Below are positions 36,001 to 53,137 of a stretch of DNA of 64,000 nt, in pieces. The notes under the pieces are model-generated. The model had not been told where the DNA came from, did not search any database, and saw nothing but the letters and a program-made list of their open reading frames with translations. The DNA is from Yuukianura sp. NJ FZ-2021. Taxonomy: Eukaryota. Numbering within the stretch: position 1 is the first letter of the stretch; every line of letters starts with the position of its first letter. The translations under genes and the position numbers were made by a program. The stretch is from contig CM102290.1 in the NCBI GenBank assembly GCA_046563655.1, positions 11,036,001 to 11,100,000 of the forward strand, in the 5' to 3' direction.

Positions 36001-37125
36001 GTTTCAGATTCTGGTGCCTATCTAAATAGTGGAATGTCGCCGACCGTGGGAAACGGGATGAGCATGTCGCTAGGTTTAGGACTTGGTCTTGGATTTGGAA
36101 CTCTGGGCTCTAGTAATCATGGACATAATCATCATTCCCGTGACTCTGCACTCTTTCATTTAGTCCGTCCAATTGAAGAGAACGGAGTAGGAGTAGGCAA
36201 TGGCGGAACGTACTTGGGCAGAGGAACAGGAGCGGGAAAAACGACTCCAACAGAACGAGCTCAGAAGGCCATTCCAGAAATATTCCTCACTCGCCTCTTG
36301 TCTACAAAAGGAACGATCCAGAAGTTTGTAGATGACTTCTTTGATACAATTTTTGCAGTCAACGAAGCTCTACCACCCGCTATCAAATGGTTATTTGACT
36401 TACTCGACGAAGCTGCTCGGAGACACAACATTTTGGATCCTGAAGTTGTGCATGCCTGGAAATCAAATAGGTAAGAACTAAAAACTTAAACTGCATTCTG
36501 CTTGGTCATTGGAATCAAATTTAACTTAATTCTTATCAACTTTTTTGTATTTCTAGTTACCCACTTCGTTTCTGGATAAATTTTATCAAGAATCCTGATT
36601 TCATTTTTGATGTGGAGAAAACTGCGACTGTGGAGGCTAGCCTAGCAGTTGTGATGCAGACGCTGATGGACTCTTGCTCAACGTCCGAACAGCGTCTAGG
36701 AAAGGATTCTCCTTCCAGTAAACTCCTATTTGCCAAAGACATCCCACACTACAGGAACCTCGTGTCAAAATTTTATGCTGACATTCGAAATCTCCCGCAA
36801 ATCTCTGACCAAGAAATGAATTCTGCGATGCAACAACTTTCAATGACCCAAGCATCTCCGTTTGATCATGCTGTGGCGCTCAAGGAACTTTACATTTATG
36901 TGTCCCAGTATAACAATCAAGTACGGACGTTTTATTTTACTTTCTGTTCTGAGAACTGTAGTAAATAATGACTTAATTGATTTATAACTAACGTATTGCA
37001 TCTTTTCTGGCTTTCAGATTCTTGAAGCCTTGGAAATGGACCCCTACTGCAAGAAGATGCACTTGGCTCACCGACTTGACAATGTCACTTGCACTCTTGA
37101 GGGAGAAGAGACATCGATGTGCTGA
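1516..37125 (+). CDS. PlexB: Plexin B-type semaphorin receptor, partial (most of the Sema domain lies upstream of the window). Exons: 1516-1644, 8076-8176, 16858-16990, 21360-21755, 24163-24294, 24911-25015, 25332-25592, 30106-30240, 30358-30471, 30654-31130, 31281-31595, 31695-32097, 32363-32505, 33318-33451, 33528-33765, 33909-34019, 35268-35421, 35648-35836, 36008-36470, 36557-36920, 37018-37125
   Basis: All introns are GT-AG with matching phases. The translation shows PSI repeats ([39 protein letters not shown]), IPT domains ([32 protein letters not shown]), a TM segment, and the plexin RasGAP/RBD region ([65 protein letters not shown]). The B-type call rests on recalled similarity to insect PlexB. 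Confidence 0.95.
8076..8176 (+). CDS. PlexB: PlexB exon, PSI-1 ([33 protein letters not shown])
   Basis: tgcag/gtaaga boundaries; canonical PSI cysteine pattern. Confidence 0.93.
16858..16990 (+). CDS. PlexB: PlexB exon ([18 protein letters not shown]...[21 protein letters not shown])
   Basis: ttcag/gtaagt boundaries; phase matches both neighbours. Confidence 0.9.
20853..21030. repeat. 19-bp GC-rich minisatellite (GCGCAGGTTGTGCGCTGTT, ~9 copies) flanked by AT microsatellite, in a PlexB intron
   Basis: Directly visible; the spurious ORFs here repeat with a 19-aa period. Confidence 0.9.
21360..21755 (+). CDS. PlexB: PlexB exon, IPT-like domain plus PSI-2
   Basis: ORF 21360; tacag/gtaaag; [21 protein letters not shown]. 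Confidence 0.92.
21870..22040. repeat. Degenerate ~28/29-bp tandem repeat (core CATGGGTCAATTTTCATG) with alternating subtypes
   Basis: Four near-exact copies of catgggtcaattttcat plus decayed flanking copies. Confidence 0.75.
24163..25592 (+). CDS. PlexB: PlexB exons 24163-24294, 24911-25015 and 25332-25592 (IPT-like domain and PSI-3)
   Basis: Phase-0 GT-AG introns; [14 protein letters not shown].., [53 protein letters not shown]. Confidence 0.9.
30106..32097 (+). CDS. PlexB: PlexB exons for IPT/TIG domains and the transmembrane helix (30106-30240, 30358-30471, 30654-31130, 31281-31595, 31695-32097)
   Basis: IPT motifs; [24 protein letters not shown] followed by [31 protein letters not shown]. 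Confidence 0.95.
32363..37125 (+). CDS. PlexB: PlexB cytoplasmic RasGAP/RBD exons, ending ...[13 protein letters not shown]
   Basis: Conserved plexin cytoplasmic motifs across 9 exons; TGA at 37123-37125. Confidence 0.95.
34097..34156 (+). CDS. PlexB: Putative alternative 60-nt PlexB cassette exon ([20 protein letters not shown])
   Basis: ttttag acceptor, CAG/gtacac donor, phase 0-0; similar to the start of exon 35268 ([14 protein letters not shown]). Confidence 0.65.
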
Positions 37126-37437
37126 CAAAACGGTAAATCGACTTGATTTGAAACGAATTATATAAACGTAAATTAAAATTTGTTAATAGTTATTTGAAAT
37201 TGTGTGTTTTTAATTTTTGTAGGGTCGCCTCCAAGACCTCCTTCGACTTCATCGTATTGTGATACGACGGCAGAGCAGCAGAGCCGAAACAACTTGTTCT
37301 TCTACCATACCCTGCTACACAACCAAGCGGAATTGATGCGGGAGCGGGAAAATTTAAGATCATCGCCCGTTTCAGGCACTCAAACTTGGTATCGTGAGAA
37401 GAATCGGCTTCCACCGCAGCCCTACCGTCCCTACTAA
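37126..37437 (+). CDS. PlexB: Putative stop-codon readthrough extension of PlexB (37126-37132 spliced to 37223-37437)
   Basis: TGA-CAA-AAC-G/gtaaat...ttgtag/GG-TCG...; in-frame open reading to TAA at 37435-37437. Confidence 0.6.
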
Positions 37438-37494
37438 AAACTTTGACTTCAACCAGTCTAAAGTTTTTTCGAAGGAAACGATTTTGGAGGTGAC
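37224..37494 (+). promoter_or_regulatory. Long-range RNA stem 3' of the PlexB UGA (candidate readthrough stimulator)
   Basis: 37224-37236 GUCGCCUCCAAGA pairs with 37482-37494 UUUUGGAGGUGAC (13 bp, 2 G-U); 37239-37246 UCCUUCGA pairs with 37469-37476 UCGAAGGA (8 bp). Confidence 0.6.
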
Positions 37495-38301
37495 GAGTGA
37501 AACAGACGTCGTCACAAAACTGACTTACTTATGCAACCGTGCCTCAACTTAGCACTAATAATTGTACTACTTAAAATAACTACTTAAGATTAAGTATGAC
37601 ACTGTAAAACCTACTTTTTATCAAACTAATTCAAATCCAGAGTATCTCAGTCGGCCTCATAACAGCATTATACAACACGGATCAAATCAACGTTATCCGA
37701 CTAATCTTTTCACCCGGCTTAAGGAGGTCGTGGCTCTCTATTTTTTCAAGGTGTGATTCCCAACTTACTTAGGCCTCTTCCCCAGCAGAAGGGTTAGACA
37801 TTGTCCGTTCTATCGCTAATGTGGCCAATTTTAACCCTTTTGTTAAATTCAGCGTCAGACCACGGATTCCCCTACATCTGACAACTCTTTTGTAGAAGAA
37901 AAATGTTTGGGCGGTATTGAACACATTAGCGACTGGAAAACTGAGTAGATAGAGTAAAATTAATTTAGTTTTGGCGCCTAAGCTCTTTTTGTAAATCGTC
38001 AAATCGGGCCTCGAGGTTGTCTGTACCTATTTATACTAATTTAGATTTCTTAATGCTCCTTTAGCCTATTTGTTGATTTCAAATTGTTCCCCAAGGACCT
38101 TTGAGGGCCCTTGAAACCGAATGAGAGTCGCTGCTGTAGCTGAGTTATGTTATGGCGTCGACTCTGCCTGCCAAAGAATGGTTGAGCATCACCCTGCGAG
38201 AGTAACTTGATTAAATTTAAAACGAAAAGTTAAATTAATTATATTGAAAGGAAAAAGCATAAGACTTATTTAAATGTAATTGAGAATATAAAAAAAAAGG
38301 A

Positions 38302-38307
38302 AATAAA
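38302..38307 (+). terminator. Candidate PlexB polyadenylation signal AATAAA
   Basis: AATAAA followed by a T-rich tract, ~0.9 kb after the second stop and just before the next gene. Confidence 0.35.
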
Positions 38308-38630
38308 TCCACGCTACTTCGACGAATTCTCCTCTTCTTGTTTTACGATCACTGTGGAAAAGTGTTCCTGGGAAACATTTCAAAGGAAGTATAAAGTTTT
38401 CCTAAAAAAACGCAAATTCTTTGGGGTTGGTTAGCCTTTGCCTATGGGTTTTCGACGGATACACTACCGTTGACATCTCAAAAGTTGGGAACATGAAAGT
38501 AGATACTAGTTCTAATTCCCATAGGCCATCATGTACGTATCCCGTTTTTTTTAGCGTTTCAACGTAAGGTTGTTTCAACGTTTTCAAGTTGAAGTTCGTC
38601 AGTTGGGCTGTGGACATCCCGAATACAACA

Positions 38631-41600
38631 ATGCCAGGGATTTCTATGGTAAACGTATTATGTTGTCTTTTGTGCTTCTACGCGGTGACAGCAAACGAGC
38701 CACCATCATTGCCTACTACAAGTTCGTTGACATCCGCCCCGAGGGCTTCGGAAGGTCAAGGACGCCAAGGCGAGCTGAGAACGCAAGGACTGTTCCCGAA
38801 ACTGTTCGGCTACTTACGCAATGCCTTTAGTCCAGTAGTAGTGAGCGCAGGCGCTGTAACTCAAAGCAGCATTAGTTCCAGTACAACGGAATTATTAGAG
38901 TCCATTCAGGACGATGGGGACGACTACGATGCAAGGAACAGCGATTACCGTGCCTTAGGGCTCCAAATGGATAATAACTTTGACGAGTTCCAGCAGAACG
39001 ATGTCGAGGAAGAACCAGCATCCGGTACTGAAAAAGGTAGGAGATTCAGAATTTTTAGAAATTTTAAAAGCTCCAAAATCAAACATCCAGCTTTTCGTCA
39101 AATTTTGAGAAAAACCATGGACTACAGTCCAAGTCCATGGATTTTTTCGAAATTTGGTCAAAATCTAAGGGTACCTTTTTATATTTTGTAAAAATACTAT
39201 ATATTTTTGTGAATTCAGGGGCGAAGAGTTTACCTTTCTATCGCTTTCCGTTCCCGAGTTATGAATTTTGAAAGTTTTTGAAAATTAAAATGAAATTTTG
39301 AAATTTTATATCTCGTGAACGGAAAGCGATAGAGACCTAATCTCTTCACGAAAAACTTTCAAAAAGTATGAAGAATTTTTAGAAATATTAAAAACTCCAA
39401 AATGGAACATCAAGTTTTTCGTCAAATTTTGAAAAAAACCATGGACTATAGTCCATGGTTTTTTGTGAAATTTCGTCAAAATCTAAGGGTACCTTTTTAT
39501 ATTTTCTAAAAATACTATATATTTTTGTGAATTCAGGGGCGAAGAGTTTACCTTTCTATCGCTTTCCGTTCCCGAGTTATGAATTTTGAAAGTTTTTGAA
39601 AATTAAAATGAAATTTTGAAATTTTATATCTCGTGAACGGAAAGCGATAGAGACCTAATCTCTTCACGAAAAACTTTCAAAAAGTATGAAGAATTTTTAG
39701 AAATATTAAAAACTCCAAAATGGAACATCAAGTTTTTCGTCAAATTTTGAAAAAAACCATGGACTATAGTCCATGGTTTTTTGTGAAATTTCGTCAAAAT
39801 CTAAGGGTACCTTTTTATATTTTCTAAAAATACTCCATATTTTTGTGAATTCAGGGGCGAAGAGTTTACCTTTCTATCGCTTTCCGTTCCCGAGTTATGA
39901 ATTTTGAAAGTTTTTGAAAATTAAAATGAAATTTTGAAATTTTATATCTCGTGAACGGAAAGCGATAGAGACCTAATCTCTTCACGAAAAACTTTCAAAA
40001 AGTATGAAGAATTTTTAGAAATATGAAAAACTCCAAAATGGAACATCAAGTTTTTCGTCAAATTTTGAAAAAAACCATGGACTATAGTCCATGGTTTTTT
40101 TGTGAAATTTCGTCAAAATCTAAGGGTACCTTTTTATATTTTCTAAAAATACTATATATTTTTGTGAATTCAGGGGCGAAGAGTTTACCTTTCTATCGCT
40201 TTCTGTTCCCGAGTTATGAATTTTGAAAGTTTTTGAAAATTAAAATGAAATTTTGAAAATTTATATCTCGAGAACGGAGAACGATAGAAAGCCAATCTCT
40301 TCACGAAAAGGTTTCAATAAATGTGAAGAATTTTTAGAAATTCTGAAAACTCCAAAATGGAACATCAAGTTTTTCGTCAAATTTTGAAAAAAACCATGGA
40401 CTATAGTCCATGGATTTTTTCGAAATTTGGTCAAAATCTGAGGGTACCTTTTTATATTTTGTAAAAATACTATATATTTTTGTGAATTCAGGGGCGAAGA
40501 GTTTACCTTTCTATCGCTTTCTGTTCCCGAGTTATGAATTTTGAAAGTTTTTGAAAATTAAAATGAAATTTTGAAAATTTATATCTCGAGAACGGAGAAC
40601 GATAGAAAGCCAATCTCTTCACGAAAAGGTTTCAATAAATGTGAAGAATTTTTAGAAATTCTGAAAACTCCAAAATGGAACATCAAGTTTTTCGTCAAAT
40701 TTTGAAAAAAACCATGGACTATAGTCCATGGATTTTTTCGAAATTTGGTCAAAATCTGAGGGTACCTTTTTATATTTTCTAAAAATACTATATATTTTTG
40801 TGAATTCAGGGGCGAAGAGTTTACCTTTCTATCGCTTTCCGTTCCCGAGTTATGAATTTTGAAAGTTTTTGAAAATTAAAATGAAATTTTGAAAATTTAT
40901 ATCTCGAGAACGGAGAACGATAGAGAGCCAATCTCTTCACGAAAAGCTTTCAATAAATGTGAAGAATTTTTAGAAATTCTGAAAACTCCAAAATCGAACA
41001 TCAAGTTTTTCGTCAAATTTTGAAAAAAACCATGGACTATAGTCCATGGATTTTTTCGAAATTTGGTCAAAATCTGAGGGTACCTTTTTATATTTTCTAA
41101 AAATACTATATATTTTTGTGAATTCAGGGGCGAAGAGTTTACCTTTCTATCGCTTTCCGTTCCCGAGTTATGAATTTTGAAAGTTTTTGAAAATTAAAAT
41201 GAAATTTTGAAAATTTATATCTCGAGAACGGAGAACGATAGAGAGCCAATCTCTTCACGAAAAAGTTTCAATAAATGTGAAGAATTTTTAGAAATTCTGA
41301 AAACTCCAAAATCGAACATCAAGTTTTTCGTCAAATTTTGAAAAAAACCATGGACTATAGTCCATGGTTTTTTGTGAAATTTGGTCAAAATCTAAGGGTA
41401 CCTTTTTATATTTTCTAAAAATACTATATATTTTTGTGAATTCAGGGGCGAAGAGTTTACCTTTCTATCGCTTTCCGTTCCCGAGTTATGAATTTTGAAA
41501 GTTTTTGAAAATTAAAATGAAACTTTGAAAATTTATATGTCGAGAACGGAGAACGATAGAGAGCCAATCTCTTCACGAAAAAGTTTCAATAAATGTGAAG

Positions 41601-44596
41601 AATTTTTAGAAATTTTGAAAACTCCAAAATGGAACATCAAGTTTTTCGTCAAATTTTGAAAAAAACCATGGACTATAGTCCATGGTTTTTTGTGAAATTT
41701 GGTCAAAATCTAAGGGTACCTTTTTATATTTTCTAAAAATACTATATATTTTTGTGAATTCAGGGGCGAAGAGTTTACCTTTCTATCGCTTTCCGTTCCC
41801 GAGTTATGAATTTTGAAAGTTTTTGAAAATTAAAATGAAACTTTGAAAATTTATATGTCGAGAACGGAGAACGATAGAGAGCCAATCTCTTCACGAAAAG
41901 GTTTCAATAAATGTGAAGAATTTTTAGAAATTCTGAAAACTCCAAAATCGAACATCACGTTTTTCGTCAAATTTTGAAAAAAACCATGGACTATAGTCCA
42001 TGGATTTTTTCGAAATTTGGTCAAAATCTAAGGGTACCTTTTTATATTTTCTAAAAATACTATATATTTTTGTGAATTCAGGGGCGAAGAGTTTACCTTT
42101 CTATCGCTTTCCGTTCCCGAGTTATGAATTTTGAAAGTTTTTGAAAATTAAAATGAAATTTTGAAAATTTATATCTCGAGAACGGAGAACGATAGAGAGC
42201 CAATCTCTTCACGAAAAGGTTTCAATAAATGTGAAGAATTTTTAGAAATTCTGAAAACTCCAAAATCGAACATCACGTTTTTCGTCAAATTTTGAAAAAA
42301 ACCATGGACTATAGTCCATGGATTTTTTCGAAATTTGGTCAAAATCTAAGGGTACCTTTTTATATTTTGTAAAAATACTATATATTTTTGTGAATTCAGG
42401 GGCGAAGAGTTTACCTTTCTATCGCTTTCCGTTCCCGAGTTATGAATTTTGAAAGTTTTTGAAAATTAAAATGAAATTTTGAAAATTTATATCTCGAGAA
42501 CGGAGAACGATAGAGAGCCAATCTCTTCACGAAAAGGTTTCAATAAATGTGAAGAATTTTTAGAAATTCTGAAAACTCCAAAATCGAACATCACGTTTTT
42601 CGTCAAATTTTGAAAAAAACCATGGACTATAGTCCATGGTTTTTTGTGAAATTTGGTCAAAATCTAAGGGTACCTTTTTATATTTTCTAAAAATACTATA
42701 TATTTTTGTGAATTCAGGGGCGAAGAGTTTACCTTTCTATCGCTTTCCGTTCCCGAGTTATGAATTTTGAAAGTTTTTGAAAATTAAAATGAAACTTTTG
42801 AAAATTTATATGTCGAGAACGGAGAACGATAGAGAGCCAATCTCTTCACGAAAAGGTTTCAATAAATGTGAAGAATTTTTAGAAATTCTGAAAACTCCAA
42901 AATCGAACATCACGTTTTTCGTCAAATTTTGAAAAAAACCATGGACTATAGTCCATGGATTTTTTCGAAATTTGGTCAAAATCTAAGGGTACCTTTTTAT
43001 ATTTTCTAAAAATACTATATATTTTTGTGAATTCAGGGGCGAAGAGTTTACCTTTCTATCGCTTTCCGTTCCCGAGTTATGAATTTTGAGAGTTTTTGAA
43101 AATTAAAATGAAATTTTGAAAATTTATATCTCGAGAACGGAGAACGATAGAGAGCCAATCTCTTCACGAAAAGGTTTCAATAAATGTGAAGAATTTTTAG
43201 AAATTTTGAAAACTCCAAAATGGAACATCAAGTCTTTCATCAAATTTTGACGGTAAAAATCGGTAAGGGTACCTTTTTATATTTTCTAAAAATACTCTCT
43301 TCTCAATTTTCGGGGTGGCCTGCTAAAACACTTGTCCAATTCATCCCAGTAGTTTCGAATGAGTTGAAGGATACATTCAGATAAACAAGGGCGGGATTTA
43401 TATTAATTATATTTCACGTTATTTATAACAGACTCTGTTATTAACAGAAGCTTTATAATTTCGGTTTTAAGAATCTTCATTGCTTCAGGGCGTGACTTTG
43501 AAACTACTACTGCAAATGGAACGGACGAATGGCGTGGGATGCCCATCTATTTATTCCAGGGTCAGTACTTAGCTGAGCCACGTCTCAATCGCTTTGTCGA
43601 TGGAGCTATGGAAAACCTTGGACAGGAAATCAAGTCAGCCGCGTTGGATCCCATTTACTTTAAGGTTCTACCCAAAGGAAGAGTTGCGTAAGTACTAGCC
43701 AGAGGTCAATTTATGGGAAGCAAGAAGCAATTGACCTACCTAACCTAAACTAAACGGAAATTACGAATTTCCAGGAGCAGGCCCAAACCAGTCAGACGAA
43801 TTCCTGTAAAACCCGCGAGAAGGCGTAGCAGGAGACCAGTGCGCCGTGGCATTCAAAGAGGTCAAACGTTCTTTACTGGAAGGAGACTCAACTTTGCAGA
43901 AGACCATGAAACTGACACTGGTAGGCAGTTGCAGCGTAGGCCTGCGGCAACTGCGCAGGCTCAAAGTCAAAAGCAACAAGCGAGAAATCAAGTCGTTGGG
44001 GCAGGACGAGTTGAAGGTTTGAGTAAAGTTCTGCGAGATGGAGATGCCGAAATGCAACTGTTTGGAAACTATACGCTGGTAAAAATTTATTCTTCTTAAA
44101 ATGCTTATAGTCTTTAATTAAATCGTCAGGATTTGAATCATCAGAAACCAATTTATATTTTTTAGATCCGATCACATTACAACATGGGACCACTGAATCT
44201 GGTGATGCAGTTTCGAACTATTCGAGGCATGCGTCGTGCAGATGCGAATTTAGAAAGAGTGAAAATTCATACTGTAACTCGCGTGAATACACAAGGTTGT
44301 GAAATGATCGACTTTCTCCTCGACAGGTAGATTCTTAAATAAAATTGTGTATCACAAATTTTAAGTTAAAAAAAAGTTTTTTGGGAGGTTAATGTCAACC
44401 TATTGTTAATTTTTTGTAAATTTATTTAATTAGGCCGCATCCAGAGACAATTGAAATTCGAGGTCAATTGTTCCCAATGGCACAACGAGTGGCTAAAAAT
44501 GTTTTCTCTAGGCTTTTTGATGGCGAATCTTTTCTCGTTGCTCGAATTCGGGAGAAAACTGGTTTAGCTCTTCTGTCCAAGAAAACTTCGTTCTAA
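38631..44596 (+). CDS. Secreted ~410-aa protein with a Der p 7 (group 7 allergen)/TULIP-like C-terminal region. Exons 38631-39036, 43489-43687, 43775-44078, 44166-44326, 44434-44596
   Basis: Signal-peptide-like start [21 protein letters not shown]; five exons join in frame with GT-AG sites to TAA at 44594-44596. The motifs NRFVDGAMENLGQEIKSAALDPI and GRVEGLSKVLRDGD resemble group-7-allergen-like proteins (family call from memory, ~0.5). Confidence 0.8.
39049..43297. repeat. 318-bp satellite, ~13.3 tandem copies, filling intron 1 of the secreted-protein gene; each unit has two inverted repeats
   Basis: GAATTCAGGGG recurs at 39211, 39529, 39847, 40166, 40484, 40802, 41120, 41438, 41756, 42074, 42392, 42710 and 43029. 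Confidence 0.97.
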
Positions 44597-45861: not shown

Positions 45862-48800
45862 ATGCATATGTAAATGCATATGTAAATGCATATGTAAATG
45901 CATATGTAAATGCATATGTAAATGCATATGTAAATGCATATGTAAATGCATATGTAAATGCATATGTAAATGCATATGTAAATGCATATGTAAATGCATA
46001 TGTAAATGCATATGTAAATGCATATGTAAATGCATATGTAAATGCATATGTAAATGCATATGTAAATGCATATGTAAATGCATATGTAAATGCATATGTA
46101 AATGCATATGTAAATGCATATGTAAATGCATATGTAAATGCATATGTAAATGCATATGTAAATGCATATGTAAATGCATATGTAAATGCATATGTAAATG
46201 CATATGTAAATGCATATGTAAATGCATATGTAAATGCATATGTAAATGCATATGTAAATGCATATGTAAATGCATATGTAAATGCATATGTAAATGCATA
46301 TGTAAATGCATATGTAAATGCATATGTAAATGCATATGTAAATGCATATGTAAATGCATATGTAAATGCATATGTAAATGCATATGTAAATGCATATGTA
46401 AATGCATATGTAAATGCATATGTAAATGCATATGTAAATGCATATGTAAATGCATATGTAAATGCATATGTAAATGCATATGTAAATGCATATGTAAATG
46501 CATATGTAAATGCATATGTAAATGCATATGTAAATGCATATGTAAATGCATATGTAAATGCATATGTAAATGCATATGTAAATGCATATGTAAATGCATA
46601 TGTAAATGCATATGTAAATGCATATGTAAATGCATATGTAAATGCATATGTAAATGCATATGTAAATGCATATGTAAATGCATATGTAAATGCATATGTA
46701 AATGCATATGTAAATGCATATGTAAATGCATATGTAAATGCATATGTAAATGCATATGTAAATGCATATGTAAATGCATATGTAAATGCATATGTAAATG
46801 CATATGTAAATGCATATGTAAATGCATATGTAAATGCATATGTAAATGCATATGTAAATGCATATGTAAATGCATATGTAAATGCATATGTAAATGCATA
46901 TGTAAATGCATATGTAAATGCATATGTAAATGCATATGTAAATGCATATGTAAATGCATATGTAAATGCATATGTAAATGCATATGTAAATGCATATGTA
47001 AATGCATATGTAAATGCATATGTAAATGCATATGTAAATGCATATGTAAATGCATATGTAAATGCATATGTAAATGCATATGTAAATGCATATGTAAATG
47101 CATATGTAAATGCATATGTAAATGCATATGTAAATGCATATGTAAATGCATATGTAAATGCATATGTAAATGCATATGTAAATGCATATGTAAATGCATA
47201 TGTAAATGCATATGTAAATGCATATGTAAATGCATATGTAAATGCATATGTAAATGCATATGTAAATGCATATGTAAATGCATATGTAAATGCATATGTA
47301 AATGCATATGTAAATGCATATGTAAATGCATATGTAAATGCATATGTAAATGCATATGTAAATGCATATGTAAATGCATATGTAAATGCATATGTAAATG
47401 CATATGTAAATGCATATGTAAATGCATATGTAAATGCATATGTAAATGCATATGTAAATGCATATGTAAATGCATATGTAAATGCATATGTAAATGCATA
47501 TGTAAATGCATATGTAAATGCATATGTAAATGCATATGTAAATGCATATGTAAATGCATATGTAAATGCATATGTAAATGCATATGTAAATGCATATGTA
47601 AATGCATATGTAAATGCATATGTAAATGCATATGTAAATGCATATGTAAATGCATATGTAAATGCATATGTAAATGCATATGTAAATGCATATGTAAATG
47701 CATATGTAAATGCATATGTAAATGCATATGTAAATGCATATGTAAATGCATATGTAAATGCATATGTAAATGCATATGTAAATGCATATGTAAATGCATA
47801 TGTAAATGCATATGTAAATGCATATGTAAATGCATATGTAAATGCATATGTAAATGCATATGTAAATGCATATGTAAATGCATATGTAAATGCATATGTA
47901 AATGCATATGTAAATGCATATGTAAATGCATATGTAAATGCATATGTAAATGCATATGTAAATGCATATGTAAATGCATATGTAAATGCATATGTAAATG
48001 CATATGTAAATGCATATGTAAATGCATATGTAAATGCATATGTAAATGCATATGTAAATGCATATGTAAATGCATATGTAAATGCATATGTAAATGCATA
48101 TGTAAATGCATATGTAAATGCATATGTAAATGCATATGTAAATGCATATGTAAATGCATATGTAAATGCATATGTAAATGCATATGTAAATGCATATGTA
48201 AATGCATATGTAAATGCATATGTAAATGCATATGTAAATGCATATGTAAATGCATATGTAAATGCATATGTAAATGCATATGTAAATGCATATGTAAATG
48301 CATATGTAAATGCATATGTAAATGCATATGTAAATGCATATGTAAATGCATATGTAAATGCATATGTAAATGCATATGTAAATGCATATGTAAATGCATA
48401 TGTAAATGCATATGTAAATGCATATGTAAATGCATATGTAAATGCATATGTAAATGCATATGTAAATGCATATGTAAATGCATATGTAAATGCATATGTA
48501 AATGCATATGTAAATGCATATGTAAATGCATATGTAAATGCATATGTAAATGCATATGTAAATGCATATGTAAATGCATATGTAAATGCATATGTAAATG
48601 CATATGTAAATGCATATGTAAATGCATATGTAAATGCATATGTAAATGCATATGTAAATGCATATGTAAATGCATATGTAAATGCATATGTAAATGCATA
48701 TGTAAATGCATATGTAAATGCATATGTAAATGCATATGTAAATGCATATGTAAATGCATATGTAAATGCATATGTAAATGCATATGTAAATGCATATGTA

Positions 48801-51800
48801 AATGCATATGTAAATGCATATGTAAATGCATATGTAAATGCATATGTAAATGCATATGTAAATGCATATGTAAATGCATATGTAAATGCATATGTAAATG
48901 CATATGTAAATGCATATGTAAATGCATATGTAAATGCATATGTAAATGCATATGTAAATGCATATGTAAATGCATATGTAAATGCATATGTAAATGCATA
49001 TGTAAATGCATATGTAAATGCATATGTAAATGCATATGTAAATGCATATGTAAATGCATATGTAAATGCATATGTAAATGCATATGTAAATGCATATGTA
49101 AATGCATATGTAAATGCATATGTAAATGCATATGTAAATGCATATGTAAATGCATATGTAAATGCATATGTAAATGCATATGTAAATGCATATGTAAATG
49201 CATATGTAAATGCATATGTAAATGCATATGTAAATGCATATGTAAATGCATATGTAAATGCATATGTAAATGCATATGTAAATGCATATGTAAATGCATA
49301 TGTAAATGCATATGTAAATGCATATGTAAATGCATATGTAAATGCATATGTAAATGCATATGTAAATGCATATGTAAATGCATATGTAAATGCATATGTA
49401 AATGCATATGTAAATGCATATGTAAATGCATATGTAAATGCATATGTAAATGCATATGTAAATGCATATGTAAATGCATATGTAAATGCATATGTAAATG
49501 CATATGTAAATGCATATGTAAATGCATATGTAAATGCATATGTAAATGCATATGTAAATGCATATGTAAATGCATATGTAAATGCATATGTAAATGCATA
49601 TGTAAATGCATATGTAAATGCATATGTAAATGCATATGTAAATGCATATGTAAATGCATATGTAAATGCATATGTAAATGCATATGTAAATGCATATGTA
49701 AATGCATATGTAAATGCATATGTAAATGCATATGTAAATGCATATGTAAATGCATATGTAAATGCATATGTAAATGCATATGTAAATGCATATGTAAATG
49801 CATATGTAAATGCATATGTAAATGCATATGTAAATGCATATGTAAATGCATATGTAAATGCATATGTATATGCATATGTAAATGCATATGTAAATGCATA
49901 TGTAAATGCATATGTAAATGCATATGTAAATGCATATGTAAATGCATATGTAAATGCATATGTAAATGCATATGTAAATGCATATGTAAATGCATATGTA
50001 AATGCATATGTAAATGCATATGTAAATGCATATGTAAATGCATATGTAAATGCATATGTAAATGCATATGTAAATGCATATGTAAACGCATTACGTAAAC
50101 GCACATGTAAACGCATACGTAAACGCATATGTAAACGCATACGTAAACGCATACGTAAACGCATATGTAAACGCATTACGTAAACGCATTACGTAAACGC
50201 ATACGTAAACGCACATGTAAACGCATATGTAAACGCATATGTAAACGCATACGTAAACGCATATGTAAACGCATTATGTAAACGCATACGTAAACGCACA
50301 TGTAAACGCATATGTAAACGCATACGTAAACGCATATGTAAACGCATTACGTAAACGCATATGTAAACGCATACGTAAACGCATATGTAAACGCATATGT
50401 AAACGCATATGTAAACGCATATGTAAACGCATATGTAAACGCATACGTAAACGCATTACGTAAAACGCATACGTAAACGCACATGTAAACGCATATGTAA
50501 ACGCATACGTAAACGCATGCATACGTAAACGCATATGTAAACGCACATGTAAACGCATACGTAAACGCATATGTAAATGCATATGTAAATGCATATGTAA
50601 ATGCATATGTAAACGCATATGTAAACGCATATGTAAACGCATATGTAAACGCATATGTAAACGCATATGTAAATGCATATGTAAACGCATATGTAAATGC
50701 ATATGTAAACGCATATGTAAACGCATACGTAAATGCATATGTAAACGCATACGTAAACGCACATGTAAACGCATTACGTAAACGCATATGTAAACGCATA
50801 CGTAAACGCATATGTAAACGCATACGTAAACGCATATGTAAACGCATACGTAAACGCATACGTAAACGCACATGTAAACGCATATGTAACGCATATGTAA
50901 ACGCATATGTAAACGCATATGTAAACGCATATGTAAACGCATACGTAAACGCATACGTAAACGCACATGTAAACGCATATGTAAACGCATACGCATAAAC
51001 GCATATGTAAACGCATACGTAAACGCATACGTAAACGCATATGGTAAACGCATATGTAAACGCATACGTAAACGCATACGTAAACGCATATGTAAACGCA
51101 TACGTAAACGCATGCGCATACGTAAACGCATACGTAAACGCATATGTAAACGCACATGTAAACGCATACGTAAACGCATATGTAAACGCATATGTAAACG
51201 CATACGTAAACGCATACGTAAACGCATTACGTAAACGCATTACGTGTAAACGCACATGTAAACGCATATGTAAACGCATTACGTAAACGCACATGTAAAT
51301 GCATATGTAAACGCATATGTAAACGCACATGTAAACGCATACGTAAACGCATATGTAAACGCATATGTAAACGCATACGCACATGTAAACGCATATGTAA
51401 ACGCATACGTAAACGCATATGTAAACGCATTACGTAAACGCATACGTAAACGCATACGTAAACGCATATGTAAACGCATACGTAAACGCATACGTAAACG
51501 CACATGTAAACGCATACGTAAACGCACATGTAAACGCATATGTAAACGCATACGTAAACGCATATCGCATGTAAACGTACATGTAAACGCATATGTAAAC
51601 GCATATGTAACGCATTACGTAAACGCACATGTAAACATATGTAAACGCATACAAAAACGCATTACGTAAAACGCATATGTAAACGCATATGTAAACGCAT
51701 ATGTAAACGCATATGTAAACGCATGCGTAAACGCATATGTAAACGCATACGTAAACGCATATGTAAACGCATATGTAAACGCATACGTAAACGCATATGT

Positions 51801-53137
51801 AAACGCATACGTAAACGCACATGTAAACGCATTACGTAAACGCATACGTAAACGCATATGTAAACGCATATGTACAACGCATATGTAAACGCACATGTAA
51901 ACGCATACGTAAACGCACATGTAAACGCATACGTAAACGCATATGTAAACGCATTACGTAAACGCATATGTAAACGCATTACGTAAACGCACATGTAAAC
52001 GCATTACGTAAACGCATATGTAAACGCATATGTAAACGCATTACGTAAACGCATATGCTAAACGCACATGTAAACGCATACGTAAACGCATATGTAAACG
52101 CATTACGTAAACGCACATGTAAACGCATACGTAAACGCATACGTAAACGCATATGTAAACGCATACGTAAACGCACATGTAAACGCATATGTAAACGCAT
52201 ATGTAAACGACATGTAAACGCATTACGTAAACGCATTACATGTAAACGCATACGTAAACGCATATGTAAACGCATACGTAAACGCATATGTAAACGCATA
52301 CGTAAACGCATATGTAAACGCATACGTAAACGCATATGTAAACGCATATGTAAACGCATTACGTAAACGCACATGTAAACGCATGTAAACGCATATGTAA
52401 ACGCATACGTAAACGCATATGTAAACGCATACGTAAACGCATATGTAAACGCATGTAAACGCATATGGGCGCATGTAAACGCATATGTAAACGCATACGT
52501 AAACGCATACAAACGCATTAAGTAAACGTAAACGCATATGTAAACGCATACGTAAACGCATATGTAACGCATACGTAAAACGCACATGTAAACGCATATG
52601 TAAACGCATTACGTAAAACGCATGTAAACGCACATGTAAACGCATATGTAAACGACATGTAAACGCATACGTAAACGCATATGTAAACGCATACGTAAAC
52701 GCATACGTAAACGCACAAACGCATATGTAAACGCATTACGTAAACGCATACGTAAACGCATATGTAAACGCATACGTAAACGCATATGTAAACGCAATGT
52801 AAACGCATACGTAAACGCATTACGTAAACGCATACGTGTAAATGCATATGTAAATGCATATGTAAATGCATATGTAAATGCATATGTAAATGCATATGTA
52901 AATGCATATGTAAACGCATATGTAAACGCATATGTAAATGCATATGTAAATGCATATGTAAATGCATATAAATGCATATGTAAATGCATATGTAAATGCA
53001 TATGTAAATGCATATGTAAATGCATATGTAAATGCATATGTAAATGCATATGTAAATGCATATGTAAATGCATATGTAAATGCATATGTAAATGCATATG
53101 TAAATGCATATGTAAATGCATACAAAATGCATATGTA
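45862..53137. repeat. 12-bp satellite (GCATATGTAAAT)n. About 352 near-perfect copies to ~50086, then a heterogeneous CpG-containing domain (GCAYAYGTAAAC) to ~52840, then the T-type again up to the gap
   Basis: Directly visible; explains the long AYVN/HMHL/YAFT ORFs. Confidence 0.98.

Follow-up and report, generated by a model that had tools for sequence, protein, structure and literature searches.

Does translation of plexin B always end at the stop codon that closes its open reading frame (ORF), or does the gene also encode a second C-terminus behind that stop? The question is raised by a 64,000-nucleotide (nt) stretch of DNA from Yuukianura sp. NJ FZ-2021 (contig CM102290.1), here called the window, in which the plexin B ORF ends on TGA followed by C and the same frame is taken up again by an exon behind a short intron. 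Our comparisons make it likely that this UGA-C stop is read through into a spliced, in-frame coding tail. In axon guidance, plexin B acts as a central receptor for semaphorins, and a conserved hidden isoform with another C-terminus, if true, would alter the interpretation of its cytoplasmic signalling. The analysis covers the C-terminal parts of the gene, namely the RasGAP and RhoGTPase-binding domains and the tail. Coordinates are positions in the window, on the plus strand unless stated otherwise.

Gene anatomy at the plexin B stop

The gene was assigned to plexin B on matches to two Pfam families and on plexin-B-named relatives from Ischnura, Neocloeon and Bacillus rossius. Plexin_cytopl (PF08337) was matched in the penultimate exon over positions 319-441 of 441, up to the final position of the family (E 2e-57), and the RhoGTPase-binding domain (PF20170) was matched upstream of the RasGAP end; no Pfam family was matched in the extension tail. 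The penultimate exon is closed by a donor GT at 36921, and the terminus of the plexin ORF reads TGC TGA C. The layout claimed by the initial annotation (stop, donor at 37133, 90-nt intron, exon from 37223, 70 codons, TAA) is present in the window (Table 1), and other introns nearby in the gene measure 86 and 97 nt. If the 90-nt intron is kept, the frame hits a TGA after 6 codons (QNGKST, then stop). Within the extension, the motifs SPPxP, YCDTT, QQSRNNLFFYHTLLHNQ and QTWYREKN are conserved.

From base composition, the chance of a 70-codon open frame is 0.05 with the composition of the exon itself and 0.009 with that of the downstream 1 kilobase (kb). At a chance probability of 0.009-0.05 the open frame is by itself weak evidence, and it is the comparative data that lift the extension above chance.

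Table 1. Features at the 3' end of plexin B in the window.
Feature	Position	Strand	Basis
Penultimate plexin B coding exon, end of the cytoplasmic RasGAP domain (...YVSQYNNQ)	36557..36920	+	Pfam PF08337
Last canonical coding segment, 35 codons, ends ...EGEETSMC	37018..37122	+	AG at 37016-37017
Stop TGA (37123-37125) plus next base C, leaky UGA-C context	37123..37126	+	Sequence
Post-stop 7 nt (CAA AAC G) preceding the donor; codon split in phase 1	37126..37132	+	Sequence
Intron, 90 nt, GTAAAT...TTTTTGTAG, inside the putative readthrough region	37133..37222	+	GT 37133-37134, AG 37221-37222
Extension exon, coding part: GG completing GGG (Gly) plus 70 codons (P0001)	37223..37434	+	dN/dS 0.155, codon-position bias, gaps
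Second stop TAA; TAA at the aligned position in L008	37435..37437	+	Alignment
3' untranslated region (3'UTR) with conserved non-coding blocks, including hairpin 37490-37515	37438..37700	+	Gaps not multiples of three

Conservation of the extension

A scan of JGI metagenome contigs with an alignment of the short ORFs described below gave 11 DNA loci (L001-L011) from 53 pattern matches, and the decisive comparison is that of the window with L008. The two share 34 of 35 residues in the last plexin exon. L008 is nevertheless deeply diverged: across the upstream 156 codons (penultimate exon plus last coding exon) the synonymous sites are saturated (proportion of synonymous differences, pS, 0.71), with a ratio of non-synonymous to synonymous rates (dN/dS, omega) of 0.01. 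Behind its TGA, L008 reads CGA GAC G and then GTGAGT, which puts the donor at the same codon position as in the window, and its acceptor, CAG followed by GG TCG CCT CCA, matches the window acceptor. The intron between them is 70 nt long, not a multiple of three, and is unalignable with the 90-nt intron of the window while both flanks align. Without splicing, the L008 frame runs into a stop after 17 codons, whereas splicing leaves 63 open codons that end in ...PY, with TAA at the aligned place. With introns of 70 and 90 nt, therefore, only splicing restores the frame in L008.

Over the 63 aligned codons of the extension, 48 residues are identical between the window and L008. The dN/dS ratio, proposed as a check in the initial annotation, is 0.155 in the claimed frame, with 22.5 synonymous differences (Sd) over 42 synonymous sites and 19.5 non-synonymous differences (Nd) over 147 non-synonymous sites (Fisher p 6e-7), and mismatches at codon positions 1, 2 and 3 number 8, 10 and 24 (binomial p 0.0013). 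Omega in the control sense frames is 2.05 and 2.13, and in the control antisense frames 1.87, 0.37 and 1.46. All five control frames contain stops, with 2-5 codon pairs dropped from each; the antisense frame at 0.37 shares the wobble position, and 5 of its codon pairs were dropped for containing stops. Furthermore, a frame-blind nucleotide alignment made with MAFFT placed only in-frame gaps within the extension (3, 15 and 12 nt, all multiples of three), followed by gaps of 10, 1, 6, 1, 7 nt and more after the TAA. The identity of 147 of 189 bases across the extension reflects constraint, because the upstream synonymous sites are saturated and the intron is unalignable. These alignments show the extension to be under protein-level purifying selection in the plexin frame. 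It evolves faster than the RasGAP domain (dN 0.146 versus 0.022), as a disordered tail would.

Two further observations concern the DNA around the extension. The 3'UTR holds a hairpin at 37490-37515 with the arms GTGACGA and TCGTCAC, whose stem is kept in L008 (at about 905-925) while the loop differs; Rfam gave it no likeness to a selenocysteine insertion element. Conserved blocks are also present at about 37530-37548 and 37645-37660. On the minus strand, an ORF of 112 amino acids (aa) at 37190-37528 overlaps the extension and is unconserved in L008. It was rejected as a gene, all three antisense frames having stops in the alignment of the window with L008, and its presence is probably a side effect of coding in the sense frame.

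Relatives and springtail-like tails

With the 70-residue tail as the query, 1.84 billion representative proteins were searched exhaustively; of the three matches, only P0004 is a plexin tail. The other two, P0002 (1398 aa) and P0003 (526 aa), are internally repetitive, have no plexin part and were set aside as matches of composition. When the tail alone was compared with longer proteins (124-2000 aa), none of the 87 candidates scored. P0004 (130 aa) starts inside the last plexin exon, carries W at the stop position and continues into a tail with 68% identity over the first 44 residues of the tail in the window. Used as a query in its turn, it retrieved 15 short ORFs, nine of which (P0004-P0011 and P0017) have W at the stop position and continue, the remaining six ending at Cys. 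In both ORFs that could be checked against DNA the W is TGA, P0006 being encoded in L005 and P0008 matching the L003 group. The W in P0004, P0005, P0007, P0009-P0011 and P0017 is most likely also TGA, read by the gene caller under a code in which TGA means Trp.

The protein search with P0004 also yielded 10 long relatives (229-2000 aa), nine of them with species names. These relatives include Allacma fusca (a springtail), Cryptotermes, Gryllus, Ischnura, Neocloeon, Ephemera, Bacillus rossius and Polyplax, and several are called plexin-B. The initial annotation had placed the gene in an insect setting. The C-terminal 156 aa point to a probable springtail instead, with 91% identity (142/156) to the Allacma fusca protein and 70-75% to the eight others compared.

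Tails homologous to that of the window also occur without the intron. In the DNA locus L007 the sequence reads TGA CAT GAG GAG TCG CCT..., with 75 open codons up to a TGA, and P0004 and P0005 have their tails immediately after the stop position. All five springtail-like sequences keep the frame open, and a five-way alignment shows SP, a Pro three residues on, a Ser run, D and [FM]YHxLL common to every one of them. Omega between L008 and L007 is 0.29 over 53 codons; the comparison of the window with L007 is saturated. On this distribution, the intron behind the stop is specific to the lineage of the window and L008, and is placed so that the frame is kept. The alignment also bears on the proposal that the tail is SH3/WW-ligand-like: its SPxxP start holds in 5/5 sequences, and its LPPQPYRPY end does not, four of those codons being missing in L008.

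These data speak to one alternative directly, namely that the extension is never translated and is a conserved 3'UTR element whose frame is open by chance. A chance probability of 0.01-0.05 for 70 open codons leaves room for such an explanation, and conserved non-coding blocks do lie behind the TAA. However, it does not account for the low omega (0.155) in the plexin frame, the bias toward third positions or the gaps that are all multiples of three, nor for a frame restored by splicing despite differing intron lengths and kept open, with common peptide motifs, in all five springtail-like sequences. We regard it as very improbable.

Route into the extension

If the extension is coding, ribosomes must reach it, and readthrough of the stop is the best explanation of how they would do so. 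Most ribosomes would stop at the UGA (37123-37125) and release the canonical receptor ending in ...ETSMC. A minority would insert an amino acid at the UGA, presumably by means of a near-cognate tRNA, and translate on. With the 90-nt intron (37133-37222) removed in the mature mRNA, these ribosomes would translate Gln-Asn-Gly and the 70 further codons to the TAA. The product would be plexin B extended by a tail of 74 residues, among which Pro, Ser, Tyr and His are abundant. Such a tail would bury the invariant free C-terminus (ETSxC-COOH), and it may add a Ser-Pro/SPxxP site and an FYHxLL block.

Two other ways past the stop were considered. Splicing is unlikely to bypass it, because the only GT in phase follows the stop and because the L007 tail is contiguous with the stop; within the last exon, the only codon with a GT in the required phase is the post-stop GGT. 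Independent initiation is unlikely, since the extension of L008 contains no Met.

A broader form of the splicing argument is that alternative splicing, or another transcript, puts the extension exon behind an upstream plexin exon and produces an ordinary alternative C-terminus. The extension exon does have a good acceptor, and alternative last exons are frequent in long neural genes. This acceptor, however, needs a phase-1 donor, and the two upstream donors inspected are of phase 0 (36920/36921) and phase 2 (36470/36471), while the only in-phase GT inside the last exon is post-stop. The frames that phase-0 or phase-2 donors would produce have an omega of about 2 and contain stops; skipping from the phase-0 donor at 36920 into the extension exon was rejected on this ground. 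Moreover, the tails of L007, P0004 and P0005 follow the stop without any intron. There is thus only a slim chance that alternative splicing explains the extension, and readthrough of the UGA remains the route that we favor.

The stop codon and its context

All 12 DNA sequences (the window and L001-L011) have TGA as the stop, with C as the next base, and they represent about seven lineages, including a termite-like one. Among the nine ORFs containing W, the residue after it is His or Gln, whose codons begin with C, in six and Arg in three. Upstream of the stop, the C-terminus CTLEGEE.S.C is invariant in 16/16 aligned sequences, an invariance that fits a motif working as a free end. UGA-C is a weak terminator, and it is kept as a stop, rather than replaced by a sense codon, in every lineage sampled. 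Together, the position of the splice sites, omega, the indels, three more relatives and the constancy of TGA-C agree with the initial annotation's claim of UGA-C readthrough into a spliced in-frame tail.

A strictly conserved TGA (12/12 DNAs) preceded always by an invariant Cys might also be expected if the UGA encoded selenocysteine (Sec), in which case the extension would be the normal C-terminus of a selenoprotein form with a Cys-Sec pair; Cys-Sec dyads exist in thioredoxin reductase. The initial annotation had held that the Cys-UGA junction disfavors Sec, which is not a valid argument. What speaks against Sec instead is the absence of matches to a selenocysteine insertion sequence (SECIS). 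In the Rfam search, a check that the initial annotation had put forward, no SECIS family was found among 121 weak matches (E up to 10) in window positions 36900-41000, and six orthologous loci (L001, L003, L005, L007, L008 and L011; 22,403 nt) likewise gave none at E up to 1. A Sec codon would also leave the conserved C after the stop unexplained, and plexins have no known redox role. We consider this explanation barely plausible.

Just as improbable is adenosine-to-inosine (A-to-I) editing that would convert UGA into UGG (Trp) in a part of the transcripts and so allow the extension to be translated without readthrough: such editing is frequent in arthropod neural genes and the intron right behind the site could in principle supply a complementary strand, but local pre-mRNA folds gave no stable duplex around the stop, their energies being like those of shuffled sequences (z -0.26 in the window and +1.41 in L008), the intron is unconserved and absent in L007, a 5' G is the least favored neighbor of adenosine deaminases acting on RNA, and the conserved C after the stop is again left unexplained.

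Evidence weighing against readthrough

Several observations count against readthrough into a coding tail. Conservation is poor in the second half of the tail, where L008 has deletions of 5 and 4 codons and L007 shows little resemblance. Some of the nucleotide conservation could stem from 3'UTR function, as conserved blocks are also present after the TAA. Folding of the sequence behind the stop revealed no stimulating RNA structure (z -0.07, -0.15 and +1.09), so the efficiency of readthrough could be very low. The extension sequences available as DNA number three; P0004 and P0005 are known as protein only, and their W could in principle be TGG. Finally, the extension is absent from all 10 long proteins (229-2000 aa, 2000 aa being the limit of the search), and the annotated plexin B proteins of the nine named species all terminate at the Cys before the stop. 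This absence is, on the other hand, what stop-aware annotation would produce.

Insect tails and the possible age of the event

Four of the DNA loci, L001, L003, L005 and L011, share a post-stop peptide, x-x-[E/G/A]-SPDLL[L/V]A, whose codons differ synonymously among them (TCG/TCA/TCT, GAT/GAC and CTC/CTA/TTG). L004 equals L006, L009 equals L010, and L003 and L004 are identical at 496 of 501 positions, forming one cluster, termed termite-like here for the resemblance of its last exon to the Cryptotermes protein. The Ser-Pro at post-stop positions 4-5 of this peptide is also present in the springtail tails, which suggests a common origin of the springtail-like tails and those of the termite-like and other insect sequences.

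A third group of tails is formed by P0009-P0011 and P0017, which have W at the stop position, then His or Gln, and a distinct tail of 80-90 residues with conserved ends, [VI]D[YF]L at the start and GF[SN]KFF at the end. In the ESM Atlas, P0017 found unrelated clusters only, with a best score of 0.86.

The springtail-insect split dates to more than 400 million years ago. It is possible, and we propose it tentatively as something rather less than an even prospect, that TGA-C readthrough of plexin B predates this split and is among the oldest hexapod recoding events, the tail acting as a translational switch that makes two signalling forms from one mRNA.

As a separate observation, a second in-frame TGA follows 13-14 tail codons in L003 (from 2955), L005 (from 919) and L001 (from 1613), and the peptide beyond it is similar among these loci (CDMLHAH, CDTCHAH). 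L011 has no stop at this position, and its frame runs on. The termite-like and two other insect loci may thus undergo double readthrough.

Implications for annotation

Current annotation misses the tail, since all 10 of the long proteins found stop at the TGA. The plexin B case would carry well-supported readthrough beyond flies and mosquitoes, to a probable springtail and to termite-like insects. Here the extension comes into being only once an intron 7 nt past the stop has been spliced out, so that cases of this kind would escape scans of unspliced DNA. Post-stop tails are exposed by public ORF sets that read TGA as Trp, and such sets offer a cheap source to mine for candidates of UGA readthrough.

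Other features of the window

Two repeat arrays lie downstream of the gene's 3' end. At 39048-43250, a 318-base-pair (bp) satellite is present in 13.2 copies with 97% matching; its units form long hairpins that give many sub-threshold matches to Rfam microRNA families, none of them at the gathering score. At 45862-53137, a 12-bp tandem repeat (ATGCATATGTAA) extends over 7.3 kb in about 604 copies. The low GC content and strong skew are accounted for by this repeat, as are the ORFs exceeding 1400 aa that are open in five frames.

Comparison with known systems

Vertebrate B-type plexins carry a C-terminal PDZ-binding motif. Plexin B resembles them in having an invariant extreme C-terminus, which by analogy could serve as a docking site dependent on a free carboxyl end. 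Its sequence, CTLEGEE.S.C-COOH, differs from the vertebrate B-plexin motif, and readthrough would mask it. With selenoproteins of the thioredoxin-reductase type, plexin B shares an in-frame UGA directly after a conserved Cys. It is unlike them in that no SECIS was matched and in that a tail of 13-100 codons, rather than 1-2 residues, follows the UGA.

The closest likeness is with arthropod readthrough genes. Our full-text literature search on PlexB/plexin or Collembola together with stop codon readthrough gave nothing relevant. PlexB or plexin was found neither as a candidate nor as an orthologue in the main text or the readable Supplemental Data S1 of the study of Drosophila and Anopheles readthrough (Jungreis et al. 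2016, PMC5100048). In a Drosophila readthrough atlas of about 1,400 events (2026 preprint, PMC13278127), a name search of the text and supplement met "PlexB" or "plexin" 0 times, and the list may use other identifiers. That plexin B is not listed as a readthrough gene holds for the consulted parts of these two sources.

Plexin B is like the genes of the fly atlas (PMC13278127) in its proposed mechanism, and many of those genes are neural. In the earlier study, the readthrough candidates are long genes, among which the prevalence of TGA and of a 3' C was compared (Jungreis et al. 2016, PMC5100048). Plexin B matches these Drosophila and Anopheles genes in its TGA-C, its second ORF under coding selection, its conserved stop and its being a long, intron-rich neural gene, and it would be a new, probably ancient, member of this known class. 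It differs from them in its probable springtail host and in that no conserved RNA structure was found. The unusual detail of the plexin B case is the intron, placed only 7 nt behind the stop.

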